The notes beneath the pieces were generated by a model. That model was not told where the DNA came from and searched no databases. It saw nothing but the letters and a program-made list of their open reading frames with translations. Position numbers and translations under genes: made by a program. Positions 9,399 to 26,951 of a stretch of DNA of 32,300 nucleotides are shown piece by piece (position 1 is the first letter of the stretch; every line of letters begins with the position of its first letter). This stretch comes from Colwellia polaris. GTDB taxonomy: Archaea > Nanohalarchaeota > Nanosalinia > Nanosalinales > Nanosalinaceae. The DNA is taken from positions 1-32,300 of the forward strand of contig JBLGBK010000009.1 in NCBI GenBank assembly GCA_047617785.1, in the 5' to 3' direction.

Positions 9399-11189
9399 TC
9401 ATTTCTCGTAGTATTCGCCATCCTGGCGTTGTTCACGGTCCTTCTGACTTCCTGGTTTGTTGGCTCGTGGCCTTCCTGTATCAGGGTCTTTTCTGAATGT
9501 GATGTTGACTTCTTCTAAGAAACTGTCCATAGCATCCCCGATTTTCACGGGTTCTGCTGTTTTTCCGTTTTCTCCTGGTTCGCCTTTGAATACCATTCCA
9601 CGATCTGCTATGTAATCAAGCAGTAAAAGGTCGTGATCAATAACCATCAAAGGCTTCTCGGATTTACGCGCGAAACGTTTCAGCATACGACCGAGCTCTA
9701 CACGTGCTTCAACGTCAAGGTAAGCTGAAGGCTCATCCAGTAGGTAGACATCTGCGTCACGTGAGAGACAGATTGCAATTCCTACTCTCTGTAGTTCTCC
9801 TCCTGAAAGTTCTTTCAGGTCCTGCTCGTAGAGTTCTTCAAGTTTGAGAGGGTTCTCGATCCGGTTCTCGAATCTCTTGCTGTTAAGGTTGGCGTGCTGG
9901 CTTACTGCGTCCCGTACTGTGCTGTTGCTGGCTTCTAGGTACTGTGGTTTATATGAGATTGATAGATCGCTGGATTCTCCTTCATCAGGTTCTATAGCGC
10001 CAGCAAGTATTTTGGCAAAGACTGTTTTTCCAAGTCCATTCTCTCCGAAGATTGCCAGTATTTCTTCTTCGTGGAGCTTGCCGGGGGCTGTTTCCAGTTT
10101 GAACTCTTCTTCTCCAAAGTCTTTCTTGAATTCTGGGAAGCTTAGTACAACAGGTTTGTTTTCTACCTGGCTTCTCTTAGTCCTGTCGAACTTGATTTTG
10201 TTGCTTCTGAACCTTATGTTGTCAGAGGGCAGGTAGCCGTCTAGGTAGTTGTTGATTCCTTCTTTCGTGGATTGTGCGTCAGATACCATTCCGTAGCTTC
10301 CAGGTTCTCCGTAGAAGATGTGTATTCCATCTGAGATAAGATCGAGTGTTGCCAGGTCGTGCTCTACGGCCATGGCTTTTTCCTCTTCTCCGAGGTCTCT
10401 TATCTCTTCTCCGACTTTCAGCCTCTGTTTTACGTCCAAGAAGGATGATGATTCGTCGAACATGTATAGTTCGGCGTCTTTCAGAAGTGTTGCTGCGATT
10501 GACACTCTCTGTAGTTCTCCTCCTGAAAGGTGCTGTATTTCTCTGTCTAGTAAGTGTTTGATGTCAAGTTTTTCTGCGGTTTCTTCTAGTTCTCCGCGTT
10601 CATCTGCCTTTTCAAGCAGTTCCCGTACTTCACCTTCGTATCGGTCAGGTATTCTTTCTACCTGCTGTGGTTTGTATGCGTAGTCAACTCCTTCTTCCTC
10701 CAGTTTCTGGAAATGGTTCTGGAGTCCGGTTCCACGGTATTTCTTTAGTATTTCTTCCCATTCAGGCGGGTTTTTCCATTTGCCGAGGTTGGGGGTGATC
10801 TGTCCGCTAAGTATTTTGAGTGAGACGGATTTTCCAATTCCGTTCTCTCCAATTAGTCCTACTACGCGGCCTTGGTCAGGTGCTGGCATGTCGTATAGAC
10901 GGAAGCTGTTTTCGTCGAACTGGTGGACTTTTTCTCCTTCTTCTGCAGGAAGTTGTATCATTTTGATGGCGTCTTCGTATGGGTATTTGTTTATTGCCAT
11001 CTTGTGGGCTTCCATGACGTCTTGGTCGTCGATGTGCAGTTCTCCTTCTTCGTTGAGGTAGAATCCGCCTTCTTTTCCTGCACGGTTTAGTGGATCGTAG
11101 TTTATGACTGTTTCTCTTGCCAGGTCTGGTTCGATCTTGTCCTGGTCGATCACTACGATGAACTTGTTGGAGTTTTTACCCGATGCCAT
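9399..11189 (-). CDS. rli1: Ribosome recycling ATPase ABCE1/Rli1 with an N-terminal Fe-S domain lacking cysteines
   Basis: Two ABC cassettes (GENGIGKS, GENGLGKT, LSGGELQRV twice), FRLY..P.P, and the ABCE1-specific C-terminus ITFRKDPDTGRPRANKPGSQKDREQ...GEYY. Confidence 0.95.
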   Translation of the reverse strand: MASGKNSNKFIVVIDQDKIEPDLARETVINYDPLNRAGKEGGFYLNEEGELHIDDQDVMEAHKMAINKYPYEDAIKMIQLPAEEGEKVHQFDENSFRLYDMPAPDQGRVVGLIGENGIGKSVSLKILSGQITPNLGKWKNPPEWEEILKKYRGTGLQNHFQKLEEEGVDYAYKPQQVERIPDRYEGEVRELLEKADERGELEETAEKLDIKHLLDREIQHLSGGELQRVSIAATLLKDAELYMFDESSSFLDVKQRLKVGEEIRDLGEEEKAMAVEHDLATLDLISDGIHIFYGEPGSYGMVSDAQSTKEGINNYLDGYLPSDNIRFRSNKIKFDRTKRSQVENKPVVLSFPEFKKDFGEEEFKLETAPGKLHEEEILAIFGENGLGKTVFAKILAGAIEPDEGESSDLSISYKPQYLEASNSTVRDAVSQHANLNSKRFENRIENPLKLEELYEQDLKELSGGELQRVGIAICLSRDADVYLLDEPSAYLDVEARVELGRMLKRFARKSEKPLMVIDHDLLLLDYIADRGMVFKGEPGENGKTAEPVKIGDAMDSFLEEVNITFRKDPDTGRPRANKPGSQKDREQRQDGEYYEK

Positions 11190-24920: not shown

Positions 24921-26951
24921 CTAGATTTTCGATAGAATCTCCTCCATAAACCTATCTTCTTCTATTTCTTCAACATTTTCTTTCTCCGCCTGTTCCCTCT
25001 TTGACTCGCCAGGTTTCTCTCCGACAACCAGATAATCGGTCTCCGAACTGACAGAAGAGGTGACATCAGCGCCGTGTCGTTCCAGCACCTCGGTCAGTTC
25101 TTCACGCGTAAATCGTTCTATACTTCCTGTGATCGCCATCTTCAGACCTTGAAGTTCTTCTCCAGTCTCAGTTCTCTTTGGCTTTACACCTTCTTCCAGC
25201 AGCTGTTCGACTTGTTTTCTACCGGCTCCTTCAAAGAATGATTCGATGTTCTCTGCGACCTCCGGCCCGATATCCTCCAGCGCCATCAACTCTTCTTTAG
25301 AGGCCTTTTCCAGTTCTTCCAGAGTATATTCTTCTGCCAAATCTCTCGCGGTCTCCTTTCCGACATGTCTTATTCCCAGTGCAGTGAGGAAGCTGGCTAG
25401 GTCGATTTCTTTCGAGTTCTCGATTTCGTTCAATAGGTTTTCAGCGGATTTTTCGGCAAACTTCTCCATTTCCAGTAAATCTTCTTTCTCCAGTCGGTAG
25501 AGGTCCGGTATTTTCTCTATCAATCCTTGATCGACGAGCTGTTCCGCTACTTTTTCTCCTAGGCCGTCGATGTCCATTGCTTCTTCTGATGCGAAGTACT
25601 GGAGCTTTCTTTTGAGCTGTGCAGGGCAGGAGATTCCGCCGGTGCAGAAGTGGTGTTCTTTCTCTCCTACAACTTCAGAGCCGCAGACAGGGCACTCTTC
25701 CGGTATTTCAAACACTTTTTCACCTTCCTCAACTACTTCTTGTACCTGTGGGATGACGTCGCCTGCTCTCTCCACTTTGACTTTTGCGCCTGGAGAGATC
25801 CCGAGTTTCTGGGCCTGTTTCTCGTTGTGAAGTGATGCACGGGAGATCGTTACTCCTTTCACATCTATCGGTTCCAGTAAGGCTACGGGTGTAAGTTTTC
25901 CTGTTCGGCCTACCTGTACTGCTATATCTTGTACGGTTGTCGTCCCTGTCTTTGCTGGGAACTTGTAGGCGAAGGCCCAGCGAGGATGAGCCGAAGTCTT
26001 TCCAAGAACTTCTCTTTTCTCAAAATCGTTGACCTTCGCGATAACACCGTCGATATCATAGTTAAGATCTTCACGCCGTTCTATCATTTCGTTGCGGTAG
26101 TCTATGAACCGCTCGATATCATCTACCATCTCGTTGTATTCGTTTACCTTCAGTCCGCATTCTTCCAGCAATTCCATGGCTTCTACCTGACTCTCCGGTT
26201 CTGCTGAAGTCTCCATTATATCGTAGAAGAAGACGTCCAGAGGCCGTTTTGCTACGACTGATGGATCGAGTTGACGTACTGTTCCTGCGGCTGCATTACG
26301 TGGGTTGGCGAAAGGTTCTTCTCCACGTTCAACTCGTTCCTTGTTGATCTCCTGGAAGCCATCCCGCGGCATGTAGACCTCTCCACGTACAACAAGTGTT
26401 TCAGGAGCGCTGTGCAGCTTCAAAGGCACAGAACCGATAGTCCTAATATTCTCCGTTATATCATCACCTTCTACTCCGTTCCCACGGGTTACAGCGGCTT
26501 CTAGCTCCTCGTTCTCATACACAAACTCTACTGAAAGTCCGTCGAACTTCGGTTCAAGATGGTACTGTATGTTTCCTGCTTTCTGTTCTACCCTATCTGC
26601 GAAGTTGCGGACTTCTTCTGCTTCGTCGGATGCGTCGATGCTCAGCATTTCTTTAACGTGTTCACGCGACTCAAGCTGGTTCAGAGTTTCTCCGCCAACA
26701 CGCTGTGTAGGAGAGTTCTCCGTCTGCAGATCAAATTTCCACTCCAGCTTCTGAAGACTGTTAAACAGTCTGTCGTAGGCCTTGTCGGATATCACGGGAT
26801 TGTTTTCTACATAGTACCTGTAGTCATGGTATTCTACTGCTTCTCTGAGAAGTTCTACCTGTTCCTCTGCTTCTTCCTCCGTTAGTTCTTCTGCGTCCTG
26901 GAAATCTAGTTTCGGGTTGCGGATGTACGGGTTGTTCTCCGGTTTTTTCAT
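24921..26951 (-). CDS. ligA: NAD+-dependent DNA ligase
   Basis: HDYRYY...ISDKAYD (domain Ia), EPKFDG, TRGNG, ANPRNAAAG, AYKFP, Cys4 zinc finger, HhH motifs and a C-terminal BRCT domain. Confidence 0.97.
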   Translation of the reverse strand: MKKPENNPYIRNPKLDFQDAEELTEEEAEEQVELLREAVEYHDYRYYVENNPVISDKAYDRLFNSLQKLEWKFDLQTENSPTQRVGGETLNQLESREHVKEMLSIDASDEAEEVRNFADRVEQKAGNIQYHLEPKFDGLSVEFVYENEELEAAVTRGNGVEGDDITENIRTIGSVPLKLHSAPETLVVRGEVYMPRDGFQEINKERVERGEEPFANPRNAAAGTVRQLDPSVVAKRPLDVFFYDIMETSAEPESQVEAMELLEECGLKVNEYNEMVDDIERFIDYRNEMIERREDLNYDIDGVIAKVNDFEKREVLGKTSAHPRWAFAYKFPAKTGTTTVQDIAVQVGRTGKLTPVALLEPIDVKGVTISRASLHNEKQAQKLGISPGAKVKVERAGDVIPQVQEVVEEGEKVFEIPEECPVCGSEVVGEKEHHFCTGGISCPAQLKRKLQYFASEEAMDIDGLGEKVAEQLVDQGLIEKIPDLYRLEKEDLLEMEKFAEKSAENLLNEIENSKEIDLASFLTALGIRHVGKETARDLAEEYTLEELEKASKEELMALEDIGPEVAENIESFFEGAGRKQVEQLLEEGVKPKRTETGEELQGLKMAITGSIERFTREELTEVLERHGADVTSSVSSETDYLVVGEKPGESKREQAEKENVEEIEEDRFMEEILSKI

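Follow-up and report, generated by a model that had tools for sequence, protein, structure and literature searches.

A nanohaloarchaeal ABCE1 without cluster-ligand cysteines: a candidate cluster-free form of the iron-sulfur domain

The ABCE1 gene and its N-terminal domain

The window analysed here is a stretch of 32,300 nucleotides from a Nanohaloarchaeal genome (contig JBLGBK010000009.1, positions 1 to 32,300), and its reverse strand encodes ABCE1, also called RLI. The subject of this study is the N-terminal domain of that protein, which in canonical ABCE1 binds two [4Fe-4S] clusters through eight cysteines (the iron-sulfur or FeS domain) and which here contains none. Routine annotation names the gene RLI. 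The protein scored 722.7 bits against the NCBIfam equivalog model for ABCE1/RLI, NF009945 (cut-off 469), residues 11-595 being aligned to profile positions 4-589 of 592, and with the full protein the PDB returned 3bk7_A at E=3.1e-166 and 6tmf_d at E=3e-131. Pfam ABC_tran matched two stretches (E=1.1e-40), corresponding to the two nucleotide-binding domains (NBD1 and NBD2), and the 15 matches that Pfam gave at E<=1 included neither RLI (PF04068) nor Fer4. The original prediction held that both ATPase cassettes look intact, and by sequence the Walker A, signature, Walker B and H-loop motifs are indeed normal in each (Table 1). An assignment to the ABC-F ATPases was rejected on scores of 161.6 bits for NF000355 (cut-off 380) and 107 bits for the EttA models (cut-offs 599 and 807).

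Table 1. Features of the ABCE1 gene in the window (positions in the window; residues numbered from the start of the protein)
Feature	Position	Strand	Remarks
ABCE1/RLI gene	9399..11189	-	596 codons and stop; sole ABCE1 of the genome
N-terminal domain (residues 1-81)	10947..11189	-	FeS-domain homologue; 0/8 ligand cysteines
Former first Cys motif (CX4CX3CX3C-P register)	11094..11135	-	I19-x4-A24-x3-V28-x3-D32; C11/C16/C20/C24 of 6tmf_d
uS12-contact motif D32-P33-L-N-R36-A37-G38	11076..11096	-	C24-P25-V-D-R28-S29-G30 of S. solfataricus
Former second Cys motif (CX2CX2CX3CP)	10980..11018	-	V58-M59-E-A-H62-K-M-A65-I-N-K68-Y69-P70
Cantilever strand A74-IKMIQLP-81	10947..10970	-	A65-ISIVNLP-72 of S. 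solfataricus; M77=I68, Q79=N70
Linker and NBD1 (residues 82-330)	10200..10946	-	Walker A GENGIGKS 114-121; signature LSGGELQR 221-228; Walker B LYMFDE 241-246; H-loop VEHD 275-278
Y-loop I region VHQFDENSF (residues 88-96)	10902..10928	-	H89 and N94 invariant in 35 Cys-free domains
NBD2 and hinge 2 (residues 331-596)	9402..10199	-	Walker A GENGLGKT 382-389; signature LSGGELQR 461-468; Walker B VYLLDE 481-486; H-loop IDHD 517-520

The source genome (G000; Nanohaloarchaeal, 787,359 bases in 22 contigs, 96.55% complete) contained one match above the NF009945 cut-off. A second, canonical ABCE1, which the original prediction had named as the finding that would speak against it, was looked for in this genome and not found, the next best match reaching 76.4 bits. 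The gene was present in 17 runs; no RNA data set was listed for it, which carries no information on its expression. Positions 10947-11189 were covered by contigs of four other public runs, none of them marked as a possible source. Only run X13 differed, by a T>G change at 10980 that on codon reading is synonymous in the Pro70 codon. The stretch is no assembly artefact. We give practically no weight to an error of sequencing or assembly, or to decay of the gene into a pseudogene: the frame is open throughout, the four other runs are identical or differ synonymously, the trait is common to 120 homologues, and the ratio of nonsynonymous to synonymous substitution rates (dN/dS) of the whole gene against two same-genus genes is about 0.06-0.07.

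Residues 1-81 contain no cysteine, as had been noted, and neither does any position over the first 113 residues; C474, in NBD2, is the only cysteine of the entire protein. The domain is nevertheless recognizable as an FeS domain, which agrees with the earlier claim that the scaffold is retained. Searched alone against the PDB, the first 101 residues returned only ABCE1 chains at E<0.8, the best being 6tmf_d (E=3.1e-5), with an alignment that is gap-free over residues 11 to 38. A profile comparison by hhalign of 35 Cys-free domains drawn from two families with eight canonical domains gave 97.9% probability (E=3.6e-13) over 83 columns. The length is that of a canonical FeS domain and the register is shared up to G38. 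Among the 35 Cys-free domains 16 columns are invariant, including D32, P33, L34, R36, G38, M59, H62 and P70.

The ligand register was derived from ungapped alignments to 6tmf_d, to the ABCE1 of a related genome with all eight cysteines (G016) and to P0290, a relative with five, together with a MAFFT alignment with 110 other ABCE1s and BLASTP to P0290. The eight ligand positions then hold I19, A24, V28, D32, M59, H62, A65 and Y69. The hand alignment of the original prediction (I, A, V, D, V, A, A, Y) stood at six positions and failed at the fifth and sixth ligands, which are Met and His. Gapped HMMER alignments placed the fifth ligand at V58 (6tmf_d search) and the third at I29 (against 3bk7). 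Since the gapped alignment shifts both, these two assignments are register-dependent; the ungapped CX2CX2CX3CP register seems the simpler reading. The residues are fixed to a high degree: I19, V28, D32, H62, A65 and Y69 each occurred in 120/120 homologues, M59 in 119/120 and A24 in 118/120, and of the neighbouring residues P70 was found in 120/120 and E60 in 118/120. Judged from its sequence, cysteine ligation of [4Fe-4S] clusters is impossible in this domain.

The N-terminal domain is under strong purifying selection. Against the same two same-genus genes, dN/dS (Nei-Gojobori) was 0.035 and 0.045 for residues 1-81, 0.105 and 0.081 for NBD1, and 0.051 and 0.049 for NBD2, in comparisons with dS values of 0.8-1.4 that are close to saturation. 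By these ratios the domain is constrained no less than the ATPase core.

Distribution and Fe-S biogenesis

The 120 nearest homologues among the matches listed, at 64-100% identity, are all free of cysteine in the first 100 residues, and PF04068 or Fer4 was found in 0/120 of them in precomputed Pfam annotation. Their sources include Ca. Nanosalina sp. VS9-1, Ca. Nanohalobium constans, Ca. Nanohalococcus occultus and Nanohaloarchaea archaeon SG9. For the phylum we used 70 genomes, all of one order, and searched them with the window protein at E<=1e-60. ABCE1 was found in 46/49 genomes of family f1, to which the source genome belongs, in 7/8 of f4, 1/1 of f3, 0/1 of f5 and 0/10 of f2. N-terminal domains were read at 38 f1 and f4 loci; 37 are Cys-free and the remaining one (L034) has a single cysteine at residue 9, a non-ligand position. 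The f4 proteins carry V, V, A, D, M, H, I and I at the ligand positions, unlike f1. The sole f3 genome, G016, has a canonical, lysine-rich ABCE1 domain with eight cysteines (L047, 228..1955, +). One genome, G060, gave two ABCE1 matches, C55:139-1926 (full length) and C64:106-1698 (from residue 66), each 90% identical to the window protein; they probably represent two strains in one same-genus bin.

A wider survey covered the best 150 representatives of clusters at 50% identity, 95 of which are 540-640 residues long. Among these 95, all eight ligands were kept in 79, seven in one, five in one, four in three, three in one, one in one and none in two, and seven had no alignable N-terminus. Eight ABCE-like representatives (P0169, P0171, P0191, P0202, P0210, P0211, P0237 and P0268) showed another reduced cysteine pattern in the N-terminal domain, for example C....CC.C with Arg at ligand 7; they may form a separate paralogue group.

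Neither the search with the window protein nor NF009945 at its 469-bit cut-off found an ABCE1 in any of the ten genomes of family f2, which are 80-93% complete (G014, G017, G018, G024, G028, G031, G033, G034, G051 and G056). The best NF009945 matches reached at most 104 bits and were single NBDs in open reading frames (ORFs) of about 240 residues; a 596-residue ORF of G014 was rejected as ABCE1, being an exporter with a transmembrane domain fused to an NBD. Genes with the eRF1_3 domain (aRF1/Pelota) were present in all four f2 genomes tested (G014, G017, G018 and G028). Archaea lacking ABCE1 would, if real, be remarkable.

The original prediction explained the missing cysteines by a reduced symbiont that recycles its ribosomes without any Fe-S biogenesis. 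This explanation fell, because the source genome carries a SUF cluster and Fe-S client enzymes. On contig C3 (7000-19000, L058) lie genes for SufB (290.6 bits), SufD (191.7 bits), a class-V cysteine desulfurase (SufS, 464.2 bits), a NifU_N/SufU scaffold (88 bits) and a SufC-like ABC ATPase; a MatE transporter gene stands between SufD and SufB, and an XPD-type helicase adjoins the SUF genes. SufBD-core matches in the source genome had E=5.0e-88 and 2.0e-57, and such matches were found in 42/44 other f1 genomes. The Fe-S clients are Elp3, the one radical S-adenosylmethionine (SAM) protein of the genome, Dph2 (206.5 bits) and the XPD-type helicase. Dph2 has cysteines at 71, 178 and 305, a spacing which we take to be that of its three cluster ligands. 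The genome encodes a very small Fe-S proteome. A CX2CX2CX3C motif occurs in none of its ORFs of at least 80 residues, and no Fer4_7 match was found anywhere in it at E<=1. PriL reached 17.7 bits only, under its cut-off. Further coordinates recorded for the Fe-S proteome are C6:28868-30442 and C1:103421-104446.

Complete absence of Fe-S biogenesis as the cause is thus a very improbable account. The tiny Fe-S proteome, with its single radical-SAM protein, would fit it, as would the rarity of SufBD in f2 of the same order (3/10 genomes), but the clustered SUF genes, their near-universal occurrence in f1 and the presence of Elp3, Dph2 and XPD contradict it. So does G016, which at 93% completeness gave no SufBD-core match and has an ABCE1 with all eight cysteines. 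Cysteine loss hence does not track the presence of SUF, since the source genome has SUF without the cysteines and G016 has the cysteines without a SufBD match. From its gene content, the source genome is predicted to make clusters and no longer to put them in ABCE1; Fe-S biogenesis persists in it despite the loss from this protein.

Elsewhere in the window, at 24921-26951 on the reverse strand, lies a bacterial-type NAD-dependent DNA ligase of LigA architecture (adenylation, OB, Zn finger, HhH and BRCT domains), in an archaeal genome.

One-cluster relatives and the order of loss

According to Barthelme and colleagues in 2007, Cys 4-7 reportedly bind the ferredoxin-like cluster of ABCE1 and Cys 1, 2, 3 and 8 the ABCE1-type cluster. 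That the protein has these two kinds of cluster, and only that, is confirmed by PMC8153317. Several relatives of the window protein have lost part of the ligand set. P0290, labelled Ca. Nanohaloarchaea archaeon and 66% identical to the window ABCE1 over 586 residues, keeps C1, C2, C3, C7 and C8. P0225, a fragment of 344 residues, keeps C1-3 and C8 and has D, T, H and S at positions 4-7; its nearest relatives are P0271-P0289, all 19 of which keep C1-3 and C8 and have D, M and H at positions 4-6. Eleven of the 19 have four cysteines and eight have five, the fifth being C7. On the cluster assignment given above, we read these proteins as one-cluster forms that have lost the ferredoxin-like cluster.

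The labels of P0271-P0289 are Halobacteria archaeon, Halorutilales archaeon Cl-col2-1, Haladaptatus sp. F3-133, Halobacteriales archaeon and Halobacteriota archaeon. Together with P0356 they are 52-56% identical to Nanohaloarchaeal ABCE1, against 50% to that of Halorussus; Nanohaloarchaeal-type ABCE1 in Halobacteria-labelled genomes could be due to gene transfer, deep kinship or mislabelled bins. The idea that the one-cluster form is general in Halobacteria was dropped, as the full set of eight cysteines is present in the ABCE1s of Halorussus halophilus and H. marinus; we confine the statement to P0271-P0289 and P0356. Since Halorussus retains the full set, a salt-in, acidic proteome alone does not remove the cysteines.

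Trees were built from NBD and hinge columns only, with the N-terminal domain removed, and their rows (51, 63 and 64) were chosen from roughly 360 proteins; P0140 was left out of the 51-row tree and the long-branch P0124 and P0132 out of the 64-row tree. They are unrooted quick searches, and support is by the Shimodaira-Hasegawa-like approximate likelihood ratio test (SH-aLRT) only. The 51-row tree (LG+G4) contained a branch, at SH-aLRT 99, that had all Cys-free sequences and the P0225 fragment on the same side. Under a site-heterogeneous model the 63-row tree split into 27 and 36 rows, again at 99, the smaller side consisting of 20 Cys-free sequences, six of the Halorutilales type and P0290, and the larger of all eight-cysteine forms and the Woesearchaeotal variants. 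In the 64-row tree f1, P0290 and the one-cluster group formed 18 rows at 97, and with f4 26 rows at 98. An artefact of acidic composition was considered for this grouping and rejected. The equally acidic, canonical Halorussus ABCE1 grouped elsewhere, with Geoglobus (99), so composition alone does not explain the topology.

Cluster loss therefore looks stepwise, as far as these alignments and trees can be read. The ferredoxin-like cluster would have gone first, in a state that survives in P0290 and the Halorutilales-labelled group, where D and H already occupy positions 4 and 6. The ABCE1-type cluster was probably lost second, and twice: the 64-row topology and the differing replacements, I, A, V and Y in f1 and V, V, A and I in f4, suggest two separate losses from a one-cluster ancestor.

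Partial loss also occurs in other archaea. Relatives of P0351 in named genomes come from Woesearchaeota, Nanoarchaeota or 'Nanobdellati' bins, some of them auto-labelled Methanosarcinales. Of 18 such loci read, 15 gave an N-terminal domain; in this mosaic (L059-L074) eight were canonical, two kept C1-3 and C8 only (L059 and L062), and five kept C4-7 only (L063, L066, L068, L071 and L073), as does P0150. In the 63-row tree these variants are scattered among canonical Woesearchaeotal sequences, and this interleaving suggests that either cluster has been lost repeatedly and independently. Loss of both clusters appears, among the lineages compared, to be limited to the Nanohaloarchaeal ones.

A bolder history joins these observations, and we put it forward tentatively. 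Within one order ABCE1 may have shed its two clusters one after the other, an invariant Asp-Met-His set replacing one of them, and may have been dropped altogether in the sister family f2, with aRF1 and Pelota kept. If true, the Fe-S clusters of ABCE1 would be replaceable scaffolding, and archaea would own an ABCE1-independent way of splitting ribosomes.

Function of the domain and comparison with known proteins

Residues that contact the ribosome were mapped through the 6tmf_d alignment of the first 101 residues. In the report on the 2.8 Å post-splitting complex of S. solfataricus (PMC7196836), R2, K15, N17, E19 and K59 of the FeS domain contact rRNA, P25, R28 and S29 touch uS12, and I68 and N70 lie in the cantilever; according to PMC5105147, K60 cross-links to K40 of uS12 after a swing of 160 degrees. 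The uS12-contact motif of the window protein aligns with that of S. solfataricus (Table 1). P33 and R36 each occur in 120/120 homologues, and position 37 is A in 91 and S in 29. K68 aligns to K60 and is present in 116/120, N70 is conservatively replaced by Q79, and N17 is changed to R25. In Y-loop I the published consensus is HRYGVNAF (PMC11190730). The A-site partners of ABCE1 are encoded in the source genome as two eRF1_3-domain genes, aRF1-like and Pelota-like (96.4 and 76.5 bits), which fits a working splitting factor and is no proof of one.

We consider it likely, from sequence comparison, that the window encodes a functional single-copy ABCE1 of the Nanosalina/Nanohalobium/Nanohalococcus family of Nanohaloarchaea, whose FeS domain is now a cluster-free protein module. 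The cofactor-less structural mimic of the original prediction thus survives in part, as a true single-copy ABCE1 with a conserved domain lacking cysteine ligands, and loses its rationale in the absence of Fe-S biogenesis. The clusters appear dispensable for this protein, because the sole ABCE1 lacks all eight cysteines while the cell still makes clusters. The further claim, of clusters with a structural and not a redox role, agrees with these data, which corroborate it from a natural case; it is already the working view of the field (PMC3442406).

The domain would fold like an FeS domain, cofactor-free. The ABCE1-type site (Cys 1, 2, 3 and 8) would be filled by a small hydrophobic core of I19, A24, V28 and Y69, and the ferredoxin-like site (Cys 4-7) by D32, M59, H62 and A65, most likely with a hydrogen bond or salt bridge between D32 and H62 and with M59 packed against them. 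The protein would bind the aRF1- or aPelota-loaded ribosome as usual; ATP-driven closure of the NBDs would then make the N-terminal domain swing into the h44-uS12 cleft, upon which the subunits would come apart.

The same residues allow a second explanation, in which the ferredoxin-like cluster has given way to one metal ion (Zn, Fe, Mn or Cu) bound by D32, H62, M59 and perhaps E60. D32, M59 and H62 are invariant in 35/35 domains of two families and E60 is nearly so among the homologues, the one-cluster intermediates have D and H already, and from ferredoxin geometry the side chains of the three positions would converge on one cluster in canonical ABCE1. Position 5, however, is occupied by Thr and not Met in P0225, in P0290 and in the one-cluster forms of Woesearchaeota, the fourth residue of such a site would be Ala, Ile or Ser, and a buried Asp-His pair with Met packing would give the same conservation metal-free. 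We regard a metal site as unlikely.

A third explanation holds that the domain has lost its role as a wedge and that the protein does a partial job, such as small-subunit binding or anti-association, or has changed its function. Some of the rRNA-contact residues are indeed unconserved, and f2, which has aRF1 and Pelota and no ABCE1, suggests that the factor may not be strictly required for subunit splitting in this order. This is nonetheless improbable, more so than a metal site, as no other part of the protein is as constrained as the N-terminal domain, the uS12 motif, K68 and the cantilever are retained, and the NBDs and hinges fit the equivalog NF009945 end to end.

Several points weigh against the cluster-free splitting factor that we favour. 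Asp, His and Met are classic metal ligands. The rRNA contacts R2, K15 and E19 are replaced by F10 (with K9 adjoining), L23 and T27, and the domain, with 16 acidic and nine basic residues, has a net charge of -7. The apparent lack of ABCE1 in the sister family f2 means that the need for this factor in the order may be unusual. The dN/dS comparisons are weakened by near-saturated dS, and the one-cluster reading depends on the reported assignment of Cys 4-7 and of Cys 1, 2, 3 and 8 to their clusters.

The selective reason for a cluster-free domain may lie in the sensitivity of the cofactor. In yeast, according to PMC3442406, oxidants and copper act most strongly on the supply of Fe-S clusters to Rli1, the dependence of ABCE1 on this supply is proposed as a main reason why both stop growth, and it is said of the FeS domain that it 'appears to have structural function'. 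A cell with a very small Fe-S proteome could have gained an advantage by freeing an essential factor from a cofactor that is sensitive to oxidants, copper and iron supply. The loss of a cofactor from one protein is here separate from the loss of Fe-S biogenesis, a distinction to be kept in mind when 'Fe-S independence' is read from reduced genomes.

Our literature search found no account of a natural Cys-free or one-cluster ABCE1 or of archaea lacking ABCE1, although a prior mention is possible in supplements and subscription journals, which lay outside the search. A natural ABCE1 without ligand cysteines and the one-cluster forms are thus apparently undescribed; the idea of structural clusters was already known. 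The Cys-free protein and the natural one-cluster intermediates of both kinds make a ready experimental series for asking whether a protein-only domain can do the job of the wedge. Members of the clade can be cultivated in co-culture, for example Ca. Nanohalobium constans. ABCE1 is reported as essential in Haloferax volcanii (PMC3828320), and the co-cultivable clade together with the genetics of that organism makes the wedge question directly testable. The finding concerns the fields of ribosome recycling and Fe-S biology, and its weight hinges on biochemical confirmation.

With canonical archaeal ABCE1 (P. abyssi 3BK7 and S. solfataricus 6TMF) the window protein shares the twin NBDs, hinges and Y-loop, the length and register of the N-terminal domain, the P-x-x-R-S/A uS12 motif, the lysine before ligand 8, both post-ligand prolines (P33 and P70) and the cantilever strand. 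It differs in having none of the eight ligand cysteines, in an N-terminal domain that is acidic and undetected by PF04068 and Fer4, and in the unconserved R2, K15 and E19. The yeast Rli1 mutant C58A, in which one ligand is lost and a [3Fe-4S] cluster remains, resembles it as an ABCE1 that is viable after loss of a cluster ligand. That mutant is a laboratory construct sensitive to oxidants and copper, and the other ligands are called 'mostly essential' in the same report (PMC3442406), whereas the window ABCE1 is naturally without all eight and has residues that may compensate for them. The ABC-F ATPases (EttA, Lsa and Msr) are likewise soluble twin-NBD proteins that act on ribosomes without an Fe-S domain, but they lack the N-terminal domain and hinge architecture seen here. 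The natural one-cluster ABCE1s (P0290, P0271-P0289, L059 and L062 on the one hand, L063, L066, L068, L071, L073 and P0150 on the other) are the same protein with partial cysteine loss and, unlike the window ABCE1, retain a full four-cysteine set for one cluster.

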